NCBI GenBank assembly: GCA_000990005.1
Contig: LBPF01000006.1
Coordinates: forward strand, 99,615 to 154,663
Direction: 5' to 3'
Source: Candidatus Woesebacteria bacterium GW2011_GWB1_33_38
Lineage (GTDB): Bacteria; Patescibacteriota; Microgenomatia; UBA8517
DNA length: 55,049 nt
In this document: piece by piece, positions 31,061-53,166 of the stretch
Layout: each line of letters starts with the position of its first letter
Position numbering within the stretch: position 1 is the first letter of the stretch
Made by a program: the position numbers and the translations under genes
Notes under the pieces: model-generated
The model's database searches: none
Seen by the model: the letters and a program-made list of their open reading frames with translations, nothing else
What the model was told of the DNA's origin: nothing

Positions 31061-31480
31061 ATGCCCAGTTTAAAAAAAGAGATTTATTTAATTTATAAAA
31101 AAGTAAGAACAATTAAGAGTCCCGCTATAAAACAAAAAGTGATTTTTAATAGATATGGTTGGATTCATTTATCATTTGACAGTAGAGGTCACAGAAGATC
31201 CTCAAGGGATAGAAGGCTTAGATTCAACCTATTTAGATATTCGCATGAGGTGGTTAGAAATTCAAAACACATTATTAAAGAAACTGAAGGGACAATAAAA
31301 TCAAAACGAGGTAAAGAAAGGTCTGTAAAATACTATGAAATTGCAAGTATATGTAACGACGGAAAAAATCATATAACGGTTATCATTAGAAAAATAGAAG
31401 ACGGAAACTATCACTTTTGGAGTATACGAAGAACTAGTACTAAAACCAAAAAAGCCCTCAAAGAAGAGGGACTTTTTTAG
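31061..31480 (+). CDS. basic BECR-fold (barnase/RelE/colicin-like) RNase-like protein, paralog A
   Basis: FN..G..HL, R..R..L, VIIRKI..GNYHFWS; aligns by eye to 50338-50751. Confidence 0.6.
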   Translation: MPSLKKEIYLIYKKVRTIKSPAIKQKVIFNRYGWIHLSFDSRGHRRSSRDRRLRFNLFRYSHEVVRNSKHIIKETEGTIKSKRGKERSVKYYEIASICNDGKNHITVIIRKIEDGNYHFWSIRRTSTKTKKALKEEGLF

Positions 31481-31540
31481 TGTGCCTGCTTTTCCAGCGT
31501 AGAATTCTTAGCTAGTTACGGGAATTACCCTACAAGCACA
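31448..31540 (-). ncRNA. putative ~90-nt structured small RNA convergent on RNase-like gene A
   Basis: own promoter and terminator; P1 UGUGCUUGU/GCAGGCACA, P2 GGG/CCC, P3 CUAGC/GCUGG; G-U pairs only work on minus strand. Confidence 0.7.
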
Positions 31541-31545
31541 TCTAT

Positions 31546-31574
31546 ATAGTATTAAAATAATACCTCTTTGTCAA
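31546..31574 (-). promoter_or_regulatory. sigma70 promoter of sRNA A
   Basis: TTGACA-17 nt-TACTAT. Confidence 0.8.
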
Positions 31575-49030: not shown

Positions 49031-49282
49031 ATGAAAAAATTATTTATAGGAAATCTTTCGTGGGAAACTACAGGAGATGATTTGAGAGCTTTTTTTGCAA
49101 CTTTTGGTACCGTTATTGATGCTGTCGTTATTATGGACAGAATGACTAATAGGTCAAGAGGATTCGGTTTCGTTGAAATGGAAACTGAAGAAATGGCTCA
49201 AAAAGCATTAGAAGCAAACGGAAAAGAAGTTAAAGGTAGAGCAATGAATGTAAACATGGCTAAACCTCAAGAAAACCGTTAA
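49031..49282 (+). CDS. RRM (RNP-1) RNA-binding protein
   Basis: LFIGNL (RNP2), RGFGFVEM (RNP1). Confidence 0.95.
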   Translation: MKKLFIGNLSWETTGDDLRAFFATFGTVIDAVVIMDRMTNRSRGFGFVEMETEEMAQKALEANGKEVKGRAMNVNMAKPQENR

Positions 49283-50247
49283 GTTCTCTTGTGTTTTTCA
49301 AAAAACTGAAAAGTTTTTAGAATTACATCACTCCAAAGCGGGTTCATATTATGATCAGCGCCGGAGTGATTGTGGTTTGTAAAGTCTTTGTTTAGTTCCT
49401 TCATTTGTCCAACAAATCTATTTCTCCACTCAACAGGAATTGCATCATCATTGGTACCATAGTGGTATTCAATCGGAGCATTAATTTTATCTAAATAATT
49501 TGTTAACGAATATTTTTCTACGTCATAATCAGACTCAAACTTTGATAGTTCTTTTCGAATAAATTTACCATGATCTTCAGATTCGTTAGTATAGAAAAGC
49601 ACAGAATAAGGAAAATTTTCAGTGACAGGAGCCCAAAGTACTGTTGGGTAATTAGCTCCAGTAATTTCAAGGACAGTTAATGCAACTTGACCTCCATTAC
49701 TGTGTGTCCAGATAAAAATATTCTTTTGATCCCAATCTGGGAAATTTTTTTTGTTTATAGATTTTAATAATGTTAAAGTAGTTGTGTACGTTTGAAATCT
49801 GGCCTCAAAAATATTTGATGACTCGATGTCTGAGCCTCCATATCCTAAAAAGTCAGGTGCAACTGTAATGTATCCATTTTTAGAAAAATATTCTCCCACT
49901 CTTTTTGTTCCTGTTCCTGTTGTGTAAATACTTTGATCAACATAGCCTCTGAGTAAAACAACTACAGGAAATGGACCATTTCCCTCAGGCATGTTAATTA
50001 AGCCAGTTACTTTTTTGCCATTAGCTTTAAAGCTAAATATATTTTTATCGATCGTAATTTTTGAAGGTTCAAAGTTTGTTTTTGACAAATTTTCAATTGT
50101 ATATTTTTCCAAAGGTTTGGGTTTGTTCCAGGCTGGCAACATTTGTTCTTTATTTAAATAATTCTTGTATATATCACTTCCCCACCAGCCAAGAGAAAAC
50201 AAGATTAAAGAAGTTAGAATATAGACTATTGATTTTTTAGTTACCAT
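49279..50247 (-). CDS. membrane-anchored alpha/beta hydrolase (S9-like)
   Basis: GPFPVVVLL, APDFLGYG, HSNGG nucleophile, ADH. Confidence 0.85.
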   Translation of the reverse strand: MVTKKSIVYILTSLILFSLGWWGSDIYKNYLNKEQMLPAWNKPKPLEKYTIENLSKTNFEPSKITIDKNIFSFKANGKKVTGLINMPEGNGPFPVVVLLRGYVDQSIYTTGTGTKRVGEYFSKNGYITVAPDFLGYGGSDIESSNIFEARFQTYTTTLTLLKSINKKNFPDWDQKNIFIWTHSNGGQVALTVLEITGANYPTVLWAPVTENFPYSVLFYTNESEDHGKFIRKELSKFESDYDVEKYSLTNYLDKINAPIEYHYGTNDDAIPVEWRNRFVGQMKELNKDFTNHNHSGADHNMNPLWSDVILKTFQFFEKHKRT

Positions 50248-50257
50248 GCCATATAAT
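50229..50257 (+). promoter_or_regulatory. sigma70 promoter of sRNA B
   Basis: TTGATT-17 nt-TATAAT. Confidence 0.75.
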
Positions 50258-50260
50258 GTA

Positions 50261-50339
50261 TTTACCTGTTAATCGAAAGGTTTATTCGGCTAAATTGTAA
50301 GCCGAAGGCAGGTAAAAACCTCTTATCAAAGAGGTTTTT
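50261..50339 (+). ncRNA. putative ~80-nt structured small RNA convergent on RNase-like gene B
   Basis: P1 UUUACCUGUU/GGCAGGUAAA, P2 AAUC-GAAA-GGUU, P3 UUCGGCU/AGCCGAA, terminator AAAAACCUCUU/AAGAGGUUUUU; G-U pairs favour plus strand. Confidence 0.72.
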
Positions 50340-50751
50340 AAGTTTTAGATAGTTTTTTTCGTGAATTAACTATCCCAAACCTATTTTTTCTCCATGAAGG
50401 AATTACGCTCCAAAAATGTTTATTTCCATTTCCTATTTGTCTAACTATTACTTTTATTTTTTTACCTTTGACAACACCTTCAAAGGCCCAAAATTTATAT
50501 TTAACTTTGTCTTGGATATAAAAATCTTCCTCTTGAGCTATTGGCATTAGTTTTAATAAGGTGATGGCTCTGGGGAGTAATTTTATACGTGTTTGAACTT
50601 CTTTTAAGTTTCTACCGCTTCGAGAACCCTTATAAAACAAGTGGTTGATACCTTTAGAATTTAGAAATATTTTTTCCTTACGAAATGTAGGTGAATATAC
50701 GTACTTATTTTTTTTGAAAAAATCTTTAGCAGCCCCTTTTAATAAATGCAT
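50338..50751 (-). CDS. basic BECR-fold RNase-like protein, paralog B
   Basis: LNSKGINHL, RIKLL, VIVRQIGNGNKHFWS; aligns by eye to 31061-31480. Confidence 0.6.
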   Translation of the reverse strand: MHLLKGAAKDFFKKNKYVYSPTFRKEKIFLNSKGINHLFYKGSRSGRNLKEVQTRIKLLPRAITLLKLMPIAQEEDFYIQDKVKYKFWAFEGVVKGKKIKVIVRQIGNGNKHFWSVIPSWRKNRFGIVNSRKKLSKT

Positions 50752-50773
50752 AATTTATTGTACAATTATTTTA

Positions 50774-51397
50774 ATGAAAAAACTAAACATCCCTTTCATC
50801 AAAAATCGGGGATCTGAATGTGGGCAGGCGTGTGTTGCAATGATGATTAAATATTTTAAACCTAATTTTGAACCTGATTTCGATGAGTTTAATAAAATAA
50901 TTCATCATAAAAATGGAATGGCAACTTTTCCTCCACAGAATGCGATTCTTCTTGACCATTATGGGATAAAGACAATGTCGTATTCTTCAGATAGTATTAT
51001 GACTTCTTCTGAAGATTTTGATCAATTTAGAAGATGGTTTGGTAAAGATTTTGATTATGAGATGAAATCTGTTGATTTACCAAGTTTTGACTGGATGGTT
51101 AAAGAATTTAGATCTAAAAAATTGTTTATACAAAAAGAAACTACGTTTGAAGAATTAATTGATTTATTTGAACAAGGCTTTTTAGTTTGCATTCCTATTA
51201 ATTGGAATATTTTAAATGATAAATCTGGATCATATGATGGACATTTTGTAATATTAACAGAAGTTAATAATAATAAAATTTTGATTCATGACCCAAATAC
51301 TGGTCCTTTTGTCGAATATGATTCCGATTTACTTAAAAAATCTTGGGAATTACCTCCAGTTGCTGATGACTTTTTTGTTGCTTTTGGTTTAAAATAA
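50774..51397 (+). CDS. C39-like papain-fold peptidase
   Basis: LNIPF...ECGQACVAM, GHFVIL, HDP. Confidence 0.85.
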   Translation: MKKLNIPFIKNRGSECGQACVAMMIKYFKPNFEPDFDEFNKIIHHKNGMATFPPQNAILLDHYGIKTMSYSSDSIMTSSEDFDQFRRWFGKDFDYEMKSVDLPSFDWMVKEFRSKKLFIQKETTFEELIDLFEQGFLVCIPINWNILNDKSGSYDGHFVILTEVNNNKILIHDPNTGPFVEYDSDLLKKSWELPPVADDFFVAFGLK

Positions 51398-51401
51398 ATC
51401 T

Positions 51402-51887
51402 ATGCAGACACTTATACTTCCTGGATATCATCCCACGAATAAAACTTGGGTTGATGAGACGGCTAATAATTTAAAATTTGATGGAATTATTAGACCTTTT
51501 TATTGGATGCATTGGACTGATGAAACAAAGAAGTTTAATGCAACAGAGAAAGTTATACTAATTGCAAAACACGTAAAGGATGAAAAATTAAATATTATTG
51601 CCAAATCAATTGGGACGTTAGTTTGTGCAATGACCACTAATTTAATTCCAGACCAAATAAATAAAATTATCTTTTGTGGTATTCCAGTTAACGATATAAG
51701 GGAAGATGAAATAAATATTATCAAAAAATGTATTTTAGATTTTGGTGAGAAAGTTTTAGTGATTCAAAATATGGATGATCCCCATGGCTCATTTGAACAA
51801 GTAAAAAGTTTTGGTAATGTAAAAATGAAAGTAGCCTCAAATCATGATTATCCTTATTTTGAAGAGTTTAATGAATTTTTGATATAA
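51402..51887 (+). CDS. small alpha/beta hydrolase
   Basis: ILPG, IIAKSIG nucleophile elbow, DPHG, HDY. Confidence 0.75.
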   Translation: MQTLILPGYHPTNKTWVDETANNLKFDGIIRPFYWMHWTDETKKFNATEKVILIAKHVKDEKLNIIAKSIGTLVCAMTTNLIPDQINKIIFCGIPVNDIREDEINIIKKCILDFGEKVLVIQNMDDPHGSFEQVKSFGNVKMKVASNHDYPYFEEFNEFLI

Positions 51888-51936: not shown

Positions 51937-53166
51937 ATGGAATTTAATGGAAATTTACCAAACATAATTTATTTAGACATCAATTCTTGCTTTGCAACAA
52001 TTGAACAACAGGCAAATCCCCATTTAAGGGATAAACCTGTAGTGGTTGCAGCTTATACTACAAATTCTGGTTGTATTTTAGCTGCATCTGTAACTGCTAA
52101 AAAGTTAGGTATTAAAACTGGTATGAGAGTAATGGATGCTAAAAAGATTTACCCCAAAGTAATAGTTTTACTACCTGACCCAGCAAAATACAGGTTTGTT
52201 CATAAAGCGATCCTACGGATCGTAAAAAGATATTCAAGTGATGTTAGTCCTAAGTCAATTGATGAGTTTGTTTTTAAACTTCCCTTAGGGGTAGATCCTA
52301 TTAACGTCTCTAAAGAGATAAAAGAAAAAATTAAACAAGAAGTTGGTGAATATATTACAGTGTCTATTGGAATTTCTACTAATAAATACTTAGCAAAAGT
52401 AGCTAGTAATTTAGTCAAACCTAATGGATTATCAGAGATTAATACAAATAATTTTCTAGATATTTTTTCCAGACTTAAGTTGACCAATTTGACTGGAATC
52501 AAAAAGGGGAATTCGGTAAGACTTAAAATATTTGGTATAAATACAGTTTTACAATTTTACAACTCTCCTATTTGGAAATTAAAACTTGTCTTTGGAGCCT
52601 TGCCTGCCGGCAGGCAGGGTATTGGAGGATTTTATTGGTATCAGAGGTTGCATGGATATGAAGTTGACCTGCCTGCCGGCAGGCAGGCAGCTTTAAATCA
52701 AAAAATGATTGGAAATTCATATGCTCCTCCACCAAACATGGCAAATGAGGCTCCATCTATTATTTCAAAACTATGTGAAAAAACCGGCTTTAGGTTAAGA
52801 AACCACAACTTAAAAGCTTCTGGGGTTCATCTTTCTCTTCAGGACAGGGATGGAAACTTTTGGCATATGGGGAGAAAACTGAAAAAGGATATATTTTCAA
52901 ATTGTGATATCCAAAAAGAAATTAATAATCTTTTTAAAATAAGTCCTATCAAGGAAAATTTTAGAAATATTTCCATTTCAACTTTTGGCTTTAATAAACT
53001 TAACAATTTGCAACTAGAGATCTTTGAGGATAGTCAAAAAAGAAAAAATTTAATTACAGCAATTGATGACATAAATAAAAAATGGGGACTCTATACAATT
53101 CATTCAGGGTCTACTAATATGGATTCTAAAGTTGTTCAAGACCGGATATCATTTGGCCAGATCTAA
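51937..53166 (+). CDS. dinB: Y-family DNA polymerase IV
   Basis: YLDINSCFATIEQ, SIDE, SIGIS.NKYLAKVAS. Confidence 0.93.
   Translation: MEFNGNLPNIIYLDINSCFATIEQQANPHLRDKPVVVAAYTTNSGCILAASVTAKKLGIKTGMRVMDAKKIYPKVIVLLPDPAKYRFVHKAILRIVKRYSSDVSPKSIDEFVFKLPLGVDPINVSKEIKEKIKQEVGEYITVSIGISTNKYLAKVASNLVKPNGLSEINTNNFLDIFSRLKLTNLTGIKKGNSVRLKIFGINTVLQFYNSPIWKLKLVFGALPAGRQGIGGFYWYQRLHGYEVDLPAGRQAALNQKMIGNSYAPPPNMANEAPSIISKLCEKTGFRLRNHNLKASGVHLSLQDRDGNFWHMGRKLKKDIFSNCDIQKEINNLFKISPIKENFRNISISTFGFNKLNNLQLEIFEDSQKRKNLITAIDDINKKWGLYTIHSGSTNMDSKVVQDRISFGQI
52599..52687. repeat. two GC-rich palindromes (C)CTGCCTGCCGGCAGGCAGG in-frame in dinB
   Basis: 52601-52616 and 52668-52687; both encode LPAGRQ. Confidence 0.9.

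Follow-up and report, generated by a model that had tools for sequence, protein, structure and literature searches.

A folded RNA convergent to a small basic protein gene in Patescibacteria: a possible type III-like toxin-antitoxin module

To our knowledge, Patescibacteria (candidate phyla radiation), with their tiny genomes, have almost no described regulatory or defence RNAs. Among known protein-RNA pairs, type I toxin-antitoxin systems combine toxins that are mostly small hydrophobic peptides with an antitoxin RNA that acts by base pairing, and convergent type I pairs with a shared terminator are known, such as par/Fst of pAD1.

As classic type III loci are presented in PMC5086642, a tandem repeat array, a terminator and the toxin gene follow one another in a single operon; the array is processed by the toxin, and its RNAs fold as pseudoknots. 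In AvcID, as described in PMC10511110, the type III antitoxin is a small RNA whose binding inhibits an enzyme other than ToxN. The locus described here also joins a protein gene to a non-coding RNA, in a different layout. It lies in Candidatus Woesebacteria bacterium GW2011_GWB1_33_38 (GCA_000990005.1); the window, i.e. the whole stretch of DNA analysed, is 55,049 nt long (LBPF01000006.1, positions 99,615-154,663, forward strand), and coordinates below refer to it.

Layout of the locus and structure of the RNA

The copy of the pair studied most closely, copy B, lies between a hydrolase gene (49279-50247, minus strand), whose start is directly beside the small RNA, and a gene for a C39-like peptidase (50777-51397, plus strand; Pfam Peptidase_C39). 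A sequence-only reading of this DNA had proposed a promoter, a three-way junction and a terminator, and all three are present. The promoter (50229-50257, plus strand) is of sigma-70 type, with TTGATT (50229-50234), a 17-nt spacer and TATAAT (50252-50257); it agrees with the consensus at 10 of 12 positions, is the top promoter-like site within 50100-50900, and overlaps the opposite-strand hydrolase gene inside its first codons. The RNA core that follows (50261-50316, plus strand; 56 nt) is a three-way junction in which a closing helix P1 (9-10 pairs) encloses P2, 4 bp long and capped by a GAAA loop, and P3, with 7 bp and a stem that is conserved in sequence. This core is recognized by R1, a covariance model of the small RNA, at 54.9 bits (E 3e-12). 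A bidirectional intrinsic terminator (50313-50340, both strands), with a 12-pair stem, a T-rich tail, and an A-run before and a T-run after it that can be read directly from the sequence, is common to the RNA and to the gene for the 137-aa protein (50338-50751, minus strand). Because its last three bases (50338-50340) form the stop codon of that ORF, RNA and coding region overlap by 3 nt, and the overlap is indeed as negligible as had been proposed.

The core folds at -19.6 kcal/mol (z -3.83; 1 of 200 shuffles equally good). The opposite strand of the structure also folds well (z -4.03 to -5.74), although P2 does not form there, so a fold computed from a single sequence cannot exclude chance. 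This doubt is removed by the comparison of many loci. In the alignment of related loci (A2), whose windows were chosen by requiring six terminal pairs and two hairpins, a choice that favours pairing in P1, base pairs are kept in 97.9% of 1332 cells, against 30-48% in slid controls, and a nested three-way junction consensus accounts for that 97.9%. Compensatory changes affecting both sides occur in 16 of the 21 pairs (181 cells), and the covariation score was reached by none of 500 shuffles. There are 128 G-U cells, and pairing drops to 89.0% when the alignment is read on the gene strand; the G-U pairs therefore fix the RNA to the strand opposite the protein gene. The stem of P3 is conserved in sequence across the RNA family while P1 and P2 vary freely, the P3 loop measures 4-13 nt, and no variable "guide-like" segment of useful length is present. 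Left out of A2 were L011, L015, L021 and L068 (structure mis-picked), L044 (over-extended) and L070 (RNA identical to that of L067); the structure finder gave nothing in L017, L053, L054 or the contig-cut L025 and L035. Except for the two cut by a contig end, R1 detected the RNA in every one of these loci.

Signals for transcription accompany the structure in relatives. A promoter-like site agreeing with the consensus at 9 or more of 12 positions lies within 55 nt upstream of 68 of 79 RNA matches, compared with 140 of 2000 random windows, the -10 box ends 1-6 nt before the start of the RNA model in 74 of the 79, and a U-run follows the structure. Words from the window were nearly absent from three metatranscriptome runs.

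Rfam 15 found only two tRNAs, and no family for the small RNA, in the whole window at gathering thresholds. For 50200-50400 at E <= 10 the best match reached 23 bits, against cutoffs of at least 47, and the matches rest on the terminator; a search of ten related loci at E <= 0.01 gave nothing beyond RNase P RNA and a tRNA, both located elsewhere. Hammerhead and other ribozymes were rejected by eye, since the junction strands measure 0-3 nt and lack the conserved cores, and there is no Rfam ribozyme match.

The protein family and its predicted fold

The copy B protein (137 aa) is rich in lysine and arginine and is predicted to be globular, of alpha+beta type. Its family comprises 1515 clusters at 50% identity in public data, and its members are solo proteins of 89-220 aa. 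P21, H37, R47, V101, G109, F113 and S115 are invariant, and K111, H112 (at least 90%) and W114 nearly so.

The window holds a paralogous pair, copy A, with a 139-aa protein (31061-31480, plus strand) and a convergent RNA (31481-31540, minus strand) that forms a diverged three-way junction (R1 19.6 bits, E 0.028). Its promoter on the minus strand, TTGACA (31569-31574) and TACTAT (31546-31551), again agrees at 10 of 12 positions, its terminator (about 31449-31480, minus strand) lies inside the end of the coding region, and its fold is better on the minus strand (-20.0 kcal/mol) than on the plus strand (-11.7 kcal/mol). Homology between the two proteins, noticed in the sequence-only reading, is real but weak: BLASTP aligned only 18 residues (61% identity, E 3e-6), and a six-frame HMMER search gave 28-29% identity over about 112-116 residues (E 3e-5 to 5e-5). 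The RNAs of the three copies in this genome are mutually diverged, with R1 scores of 54.9 bits for B and 19.6 bits for A, and no match for C.

Only one Pfam family, LPD3 (PF18798), gave repeated full-length matches to the proteins, and nearly all of these fall under the Pfam cutoff. PMC5512222 defines LPD3 as a domain of unknown function in giant polyvalent proteins and does not place it with the "potentially enzymatic" LPDs. Copy A scores 23.7 bits (E 5.6e-5), below the 27-bit curated cutoff, and copy B has no LPD3 match at E <= 1. At E <= 0.01 LPD3 was found in 22 of 76 representatives, one of them above the curated cutoff; matches were also present in 11 of 24 alignment members, and precomputed PF18798 assignments in 11 of 104 listed homologs. 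The copy B protein is thus a distant relative of LPD3 and not a member by the Pfam rule. In phages and plasmids LPD3 is embedded in giant polyvalent proteins, whereas the proteins here stand alone and are paired with an RNA.

The AlphaFold model of copy B (pLDDT 87.9) consists of N-terminal helices and a four-stranded antiparallel sheet, with helices predicted at 2-14, 32-39, 49-57 and 59-68 and strands at 74-80, 83-94, 97-106 and 111-118. This is the topology set out for BECR proteins in section 19 of PMC5512222, and the predicted model also shows the BECR residue pattern of a His in a helix and His/Ser on strand 4: H37 falls in helix 32-39, and H112 and S115 on the fourth strand (111-118). 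The same configuration is given for BECR RNases in that section and in bioRxiv 10.64898/2026.08.28.747851. The best structural match is CdiA-CT of Kp342 (6cp9_A; Z 5.5, rmsd 3.8, 96 aligned residues), which may reflect a common arrangement only, followed by BrnT (Z 4.7) and then RelE, MqsR, colicin D, ParE, colicin E5, RegB and YoeB. Most top matches are BECR/RelE-type toxins, yet all have Z < 8. No ToxN-like chain is among the 50 structural matches listed, an absence that does not exclude a ToxN fold.

Foldseek against the PDB gave no match at E <= 0.001, a PDB sequence-profile search no meaningful one (one at E 4.2), and the Pfam BECR/PBECR models matched none of the 76 representatives at E <= 0.01; NCBIfam, PADLOC and PHROGs returned nothing useful for the three paralogs. 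The label "PBECR" in the Atlas is an automatic cluster name. The predicted fold and the arrangement of His37, His112 and Ser115 fit BECR (RelE/colicin-like) RNases, but with modest structural scores. The earlier term RNase-like draws its support only from this predicted fold and residue pattern. The subfamily of copy C is without the second histidine (H112), so the catalytic reading may not hold for every member.

Linkage of the RNA to the protein gene

R1 was searched in 78 loci of other genomes that encode a relative of the protein. In 76 of them it finds the RNA just downstream of the gene, on the opposite strand every time, and the two loci without it (L025, L035) end at a contig edge 10 and 29 nt after the stop codon; no intact protein gene without the RNA was found among the assessable loci. 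Copy B and 75 of the 76 related loci have one RNA unit each, the exception (L076) having a second R1 match at the far end of the locus. In more distant subfamilies of the protein, the corresponding position is occupied by RNA variants particular to each. In most loci a hairpin (30-45 nt) separates gene and RNA; WWE3-like loci lack such a hairpin, and there the end of the RNA lies -4 to +4 nt from the stop codon.

Eighteen of 151 sampled genomes of the phylum carry the protein, among them none of the three other genomes of the window's family, and both RNA and protein were detected at the search thresholds in 11 of the 151, adjacent and convergent in all 11. Up to three diverged copies of the module occur in one 0.85-Mb genome. 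One genome, G044, has two tandem RNA units and no protein gene. The R1 match in G132 is likely a false positive, located inside a 583-aa ORF on a high-GC contig. The module has so far been found almost only in Patescibacteria, as judged from the sequences searched.

Among the 76 loci with the RNA, the ORF is intact in 64, cut by a contig edge in two, and broken or truncated in ten, with in-frame stops that include TAA and TAG. The protein gene is thus broken beside an intact RNA in 10 of 74 assessable loci, and these ten RNAs score 42-73 bits with R1; in G146, likewise, a degraded gene lies beside an intact RNA and promoter. The ten broken genes could simply represent recent decay of the whole module.

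The neighbourhood of the pair varies. In 127 neighbouring proteins of related loci the largest similarity cluster has two members, which shows, as far as protein similarity can tell, that no conserved protein partner lies beside the module. By Pfam, the neighbours are housekeeping genes mixed with mobile or defence genes, including some integrases, a transposase and restriction-modification genes. In two genomes of the same genus (G151, G152), the hydrolase directly adjoins the homolog of a 161-aa gene, with neither RNA nor protein gene between. The segment of about 1.15 kb that holds the small RNA, the 137-aa gene and the C39-like peptidase gene (50248-51401) is absent between the same flanking genes there, and the module is apparently gained or lost as a unit. 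None of nine orthologous hydrolase loci in relatives carries the RNA (search with filters off), and in other genomes the position of the RNA after the LPD3-like gene does not depend on which gene comes next. Since same-genus relatives have the hydrolase but lack both RNA and protein gene, an origin of the RNA as the hydrolase's 5' UTR is refuted as far as the comparison goes; such an origin had been named beforehand as one of the findings that would overturn the pair.

Two of the three proposals of the sequence-only reading, that the RNA is real and that it forms a two-component unit with the protein gene, are supported by the covarying helices and by the presence of the RNA, always convergent, in 76 of the 78 loci. 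The loci show that the RNA-protein gene pair behaves as a self-contained two-gene module with obligate linkage.

A toxin-antitoxin reading, its alternatives and known systems

We read the module as a type III-like toxin-antitoxin pair in which a folded RNA would neutralize an RNase, an explanation that we hold at about an even chance. One gene would give a small basic protein with the predicted BECR-type (RelE/colicin-like), metal-independent RNase fold, and the second a convergent small RNA (about 56-95 nt) that has a strong promoter and a terminator to itself and folds into a three-way junction. The abundant folded RNA would keep the RNase inactive by direct binding, with the junction and the conserved sequence of the P3 stem as the probable contacts; if RNA synthesis stopped or the RNA were degraded, the RNase would be freed. 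RNase activity and toxicity are predictions of this reading, and direct binding is inferred only from linkage and co-divergence of the partners. The patchy spread, the multiple copies and the retention of the RNA without the protein are more in keeping with a selfish or addictive module than with a housekeeping role.

Linkage and co-divergence would be expected just as well if RNA and protein formed a working ribonucleoprotein, the RNA being the RNase's substrate, cofactor, specificity subunit or activator, e.g. as part of a defence effector or of an enzyme that processes RNA and has an RNA dedicated to it. In favour are the strongly basic character of the protein, the conserved sequence of P3, which suggests a specific binding site, and the 64 of 74 assessable loci in which both parts are intact. 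We nevertheless consider such a particle unlikely, given its patchy distribution (18 of 151 genomes, none of the three others of the window's family, and two same-genus hydrolase loci without the module), up to three diverged copies in a 0.85-Mb genome, retention of the RNA where the protein is broken or absent, and a P3 loop of only 4-13 nt with no guide-like variable segment.

The RNA could also act in type I-like fashion on the mRNA of the protein, via the shared terminator, a 3' overlap or transcriptional collision, lowering mRNA stability or read-through, in which case its fold would serve RNA stability and termination only. The genes are convergent with a bidirectional terminator in common, and the terminator of the copy A RNA lies inside the last codons of its gene. 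In WWE3-like loci, where a separate hairpin is lacking and the RNA ends so close to the stop codon, the end of the mRNA has to pass across the RNA gene, and the 3' UTR may run antisense through the whole of it, so that antisense effects are possible. Against this, the coding overlap is 3 nt in copy B, and a hairpin keeps the two apart in most loci. The cognate RNA paired better than non-cognate ones with the mRNA 5' region in 29 of 56 cases (p 0.38) and with the coding region in 26 of 56 (p 0.85), i.e. no cognate-specific complementarity was found in either. Compensatory changes and kept G-U pairs are not needed for antisense function, the stem of P3 is conserved while P1 and P2 vary freely, and G044 keeps two RNA units with no target gene. 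Antisense action is accordingly quite improbable in our view, and the earlier suggestion that the RNA acts through its fold and not through pairing is supported by the covarying helices and the lack of cognate complementarity.

A role at the DNA level, as the end or recombination site of a small mobile cassette, or mere hitch-hiking of an independent small RNA with the gene, seems very remote. The module is inserted between conserved genes, and integrases, a transposase and restriction-modification genes are among its neighbours; but G-U pairs are tolerated on one strand only, the structure is preceded at a constant 1-6 nt by a consensus promoter and followed by a U-run, and an informal look revealed no inverted second copy beyond the gene, as cassette ends need. 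A 5' UTR of the hydrolase gene or a chance fold can be practically dismissed, for although the structure lies directly upstream of the hydrolase start and its minus strand folds well, P2 is absent on that strand, the nine orthologous hydrolase loci are without the RNA, the hydrolase start abuts the next gene in two same-genus genomes, and elsewhere the RNA follows the LPD3-like gene regardless of what lies beyond.

For Patescibacteria the module supplies a small RNA family that is well supported, easy to test and tied to a protein partner of its own; at about 0.6 kb the pair is small enough for tests in E. coli. Were the RNA the antidote of a BECR RNase, type III biology would be widened to a new toxin fold, RNA architecture and gene layout; the occurrence of a very common toxin fold without a protein immunity gene would be explained, and a first function would be assigned to LPD3 in the polyvalent proteins of phages and plasmids. 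In a bolder version of the toxin-antitoxin reading, the 56-nt RNA, with a closing helix and two arms, would inhibit by mimicking the natural structured substrate of the RNase, e.g. a tRNA-like one. The top structural neighbours of the copy B model are tRNases. No description of the pair was found in the openly accessible literature searched, bioRxiv supplements aside.

Like type I systems (par/Fst, TxpA/RatA), the module has convergent genes, terminators that are shared or overlap, and a small RNA transcribed from a strong promoter of its own. The protein differs in being a basic, predicted soluble chain of 137 aa, and the overlap is minimal, consisting in copy B of the terminator and 3 nt of coding sequence, with no extra complementarity. 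Neither cognate-specific RNA-mRNA pairing nor a small hydrophobic toxin was found, and a 3' UTR overlap is possible in the loci without a hairpin.

The likeness to BECR toxins (RelE, BrnT, MqsR, colicin D/E5, the CdiA-CT tRNases) lies in the predicted helix or helices with a four-stranded antiparallel sheet, in the invariant His in a helix with His/Ser on strand 4, and in the top of the structural list, which is theirs; Z values to the copy B model do not exceed 5.5, and there is no sequence-profile link. Those toxins are neutralized by proteins, whereas the module here has no conserved protein neighbour.

With type III systems (ToxIN, CptIN, TenpIN, AvcID) the module shares a protein effector with a dedicated non-coding RNA, the lack of a protein antitoxin, and partners that co-diverge; the effector is an endoribonuclease in the classic families, and an excess of the RNA is expected for the module here. 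It differs in that its RNA is downstream, convergent and under its own promoter, while PMC5086642 describes an RNA upstream in the same operon. There is a single unit (a tandem pair only in G044) instead of a tandem array, a consensus that reads as a nested three-way junction where the classic RNAs are pseudoknots, and a predicted BECR-like fold where the classic toxin is ToxN. We tentatively suggest, with somewhat less than even confidence, that the module represents a new type III-like family, the first with a BECR/RelE-type toxin and the first with a single convergent three-way-junction RNA as antidote, occurring almost only in Patescibacteria.

An RNA gene beside copy B and its relatives

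The copy B gene (50338-50751, minus strand) encodes a protein of 137 aa and is separated by a 90-nt spacer from an alpha/beta hydrolase gene (49279-50247, minus strand). The RNA features occupy the plus strand of this spacer and its left edge. They comprise a promoter-like site, TTGATT-17-TATAAT (50229-50257), which matches at 10 of 12 positions and is the best in the region; a 56-nt core (50261-50316) predicted to fold as a three-way junction (-19.6 kcal/mol, z -3.83), with a closing helix P1 of 9-10 bp and two arms, P2 (4 bp, GAAA loop) and P3 (7 bp); and a hairpin of 12 pairs between an A-run and a T-run (50313-50340), whose last three bases are the stop codon of the 137-aa ORF. The sequence-only reading had described promoter, junction and terminator accurately, and the coding-region overlap is as negligible as it held, the stretch common to the two genes being the terminator and 3 nt of coding sequence. 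Folding of this single sequence is weak proof, as the complementary strand also scores well (P2 does not form there), and a comparison across relatives was therefore used.

The DNA 3' of the stop codon was read at 78 loci encoding a relative, taken from species-representative genomes. Nearly all share one arrangement on the opposite strand from the gene: a TTGACA/TATAAT-like promoter leads into a three-way junction, after which comes a hairpin terminator or, in other loci, a U-run immediately behind P1. In a MAFFT alignment of 67 distinct RNA sequences, with the consensus structure written from the alignment, standard pairs make up 97.9% of 1332 cells, falling to 30-48% once the 3' partners are slid by 1-3 columns. 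Both sides have changed in 16 of 21 pairs (181 cells), and the covariation score was reached by none of 500 shuffles. P1 and P2 covary freely while the P3 stem is kept in sequence; the windows were picked by a script requiring six terminal pairs and two hairpins, which favours P1 but not covariation in P2 or P3. Eleven loci fell outside the alignment: five were mis-picked or over-extended, one was a duplicate and five gave no script find (two of them cut by contig ends). Homologs lacking the RNA would have spoken against the sequence-only reading, but a covariance model built from the alignment (R1) matches all but two of the 78 loci (76), and with the gene oriented plus every match is on the minus strand; the two missed end 10 and 29 nt past the stop codon.

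Strand and transcription signals agree with this orientation. The alignment contains 128 G-U cells (P3 columns 33-52, for example, are G-U in 45 sequences), and reading it on the gene strand lowers pairing from 97.9% to 89.0%. A promoter matching at least 9 of 12 positions lies at most 55 nt upstream of 68 of 79 R1 hits; among random windows drawn from these loci, 140 of 2000 had such a match. In 74 of the 79 hits the model start comes 1-6 nt after the end of the -10 box, and 72 have five or more consecutive T in the 60 nt that follow. Given this strand bias, promoter position and T-runs, the RNA is predicted to be a small, separate transcript that starts at about the first base of P1. About 35-45 nt ahead of the RNA start, a DnaA-box-like 9-mer (TTATCCACA or its complement, at most one mismatch) abuts the -35 box at 27 of 75 loci (e.g. 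L042, L061, L072 and L079), compared with 116 matches in 3000 random windows; it is absent at copy B. Whole-genome counts in four of these genomes gave 9-38 exact copies each, compared with 1-5 copies of a reversed control, so it is a motif dispersed through the genome and not specific to the module of RNA and LPD3-like gene.

The gene is a single open frame over the protein profile in 64 of the 76 loci that bear the RNA, is cut by a contig edge in 2 and is broken in 10, by a single in-frame stop (four loci: TGA, TAA, TGA, TAG), internal deletion (two), N-terminal truncation (three) or frameshift (one). All ten broken loci keep an RNA scoring 42-73 bits; genome G146 likewise has a degraded gene with RNA and promoter intact. 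Wherever the sequence continues past the gene, no intact gene was found without the RNA. Such an asymmetry is as expected of a toxin with an indispensable antidote, but is not proof, since the loci were found via the protein.

Protein family and distribution

A search with copy B in a word-indexed protein collection gives 104 relatives at E ≤ 0.001; those with names come from WWE3 and Peregrinibacteria, and for 11 of the 104 a match to LPD3 (PF18798) had been precomputed. A 24-member profile matches 1515 clusters at 50% identity, 975 of them at E ≤ 1e-10, and the best 150 of the 1515 are all solo proteins of 89-220 aa. P21, H37, R47, V101, G109, F113 and S115 are invariant in the family, and K111, H112 and W114 nearly so. 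LPD3 matches 22 of 76 representatives, one above the cutoff, and has no assigned function in the available part of the polyvalent-protein paper (PMC5512222); the Pfam PBECR models match none of the 76. The ESM Atlas cluster of copy B bears the automatic name "putative PBECR3 domain-containing".

An AlphaFold model of copy B (24-sequence alignment, mean pLDDT 87.9) consists of helices followed by a four-stranded antiparallel sheet. Foldseek gave no match at E ≤ 0.001. An exhaustive structural search was headed by a CdiA-CT tRNase (6cp9, Z 5.5), a Salmonella TA-complex chain (Z 5.2), another CdiA-CT (Z 4.9) and BrnT (Z 4.7), then RelE, MqsR, colicin D, ParE, colicin E5, RegB and YoeB. Because all Z scores lie below the tool's safe level, the apparent resemblance of the model to BECR RNases is a lead. 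The common BECR active site, as given in section 19 of PMC5512222, is a His in a helix and a Ser/Thr on strand 4, and in colicin-like members, according to an excerpt of bioRxiv 10.64898/2026.08.28.747851, the last strand bears a second His. The model matches this pattern, with H37 placed in helix 32-39 and strand 111-118 containing both H112 and S115.

The window's genome (845 kb, 97% complete) encodes three diverged paralogs. R1 scores 54.9 bits at copy B and 19.6 bits at copy A (gene 31061-31480; RNA 31481-31540, minus strand). Copy C, of 127 aa, lies on contig 10 (L006:1480-1863, plus strand) with a convergent multi-helix RNA (L006:1860-1928, minus strand) that R1 does not match; two small ORFs just upstream read, from their sequence, as a HicB + HicA operon.

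In 151 genomes evenly spread over the phylum, the protein occurs in 18 (E ≤ 0.001), the RNA in 13 and both in 11, adjacent and convergent in every case. The seven protein-only genomes carry more distant proteins: G033, G063 and G116 give weak R1 matches at the expected place and strand with filters off, and in G035, G149, G105 and G103, as judged by eye on folds, a promoter-like site precedes a multi-helix structure with a closing terminal helix. The copy C type of RNA recurs in another genome beside a 51%-identical protein, with three compensatory pairs in P2. Of the two RNA-only genomes, G132 is probably a false hit (within a long ORF on a high-GC contig). G044 has two tandem RNA units with one promoter and one terminator (L088:1432-1545, plus strand), a Fic-domain gene upstream and a convergent 138-aa membrane protein gene downstream; at E ≤ 0.001 the protein has no relative anywhere in this genome. 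The module also occurs on records labelled as non-Patescibacteria: a 4.74-Mb Chitinophagaceae chromosome (L075, RNA 53.2 bits), a Nitrospira contig (L044, 69.6 bits) and a Woesearchaeota contig (L035, contig-cut, gene alone); these could reflect horizontal transfer or mis-binning.

Genomic neighbourhood

Of 21 genomes searched, among them that of the window, 20 have a hydrolase ortholog. In two same-genus genomes the hydrolase start abuts a homolog of the window's 161-aa gene (51402-51887); relative to them the window has an additional stretch of about 1.15 kb, in which lie the RNA, the 137-aa gene and a C39-like peptidase gene (206 aa, 50777-51397, plus strand; Peptidase_C39 E 4.4e-9). The latter is divergent from the 137-aa gene, the two starts lying 25 nt apart. 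It is not a general module partner: Peptidase_C39 has no match among 127 proteins flanking the module elsewhere, whose largest similarity cluster has two members. Neighbours there range from GyrB, RuvB, ClpP and tRNA synthetases to integrases, a transposase, HsdM, Fic and NYN. An RNase P RNA adjoins one module (L064:3171-3494, minus strand), and a 5S-rRNA-like sequence was read just beyond the RNA in L054.

Further along the window, two copies of the palindromic GC-rich motif CCTGCCGGCAGGCAGG (52599-52618 and 52668-52687; none expected by chance) lie in frame within a DinB/Pol IV-like ORF (51937-53166), each adding a "PAGRQ" stretch that a same-genus ortholog lacks.

Possible mode of action

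A BECR-type RNase normally requires an immunity partner, and the RNA is the only conserved partner of the protein gene. For this reason, and because the RNA probably does not work chiefly by antisense action, we favour a type III-like mechanism, to which we give about an even chance: the folded RNA would bind the putative RNase directly and inhibit it, and its own strong promoter would supply it in excess. That the two instead form a working ribonucleoprotein is conceivable but rather doubtful. Antisense or transcriptional-interference control of the protein gene by the RNA is somewhat less probable still, because the overlap is small in copy B, a hairpin separates the two in most loci, the RNA fold is maintained by selection, and duplexes of an RNA with its cognate mRNA do not surpass those with non-cognate mRNAs in either the 5' region (29/56, p 0.38) or the coding region (26/56, p 0.85). 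A DNA-level or hitch-hiking element appears very improbable. The proposal that the structure is a leader of the hydrolase gene, or a chance fold, can be practically discarded, as R1 matches none of nine hydrolase ortholog loci from other genomes, even with filters off, and the module is absent next to the hydrolase in the two same-genus genomes.

The type III-like module favoured here is not a member of ToxIN/CptIN/TenpIN. In the available text of PMC5086642 those systems have an operon layout, a repeat array and pseudoknotted RNAs, whereas the module, when tested, had neither of the first two and its RNA has no predicted pseudoknot. Non-canonical pairs in which an RNA inhibits an enzyme do exist, as an excerpt on AvcID (PMC10511110) describes.
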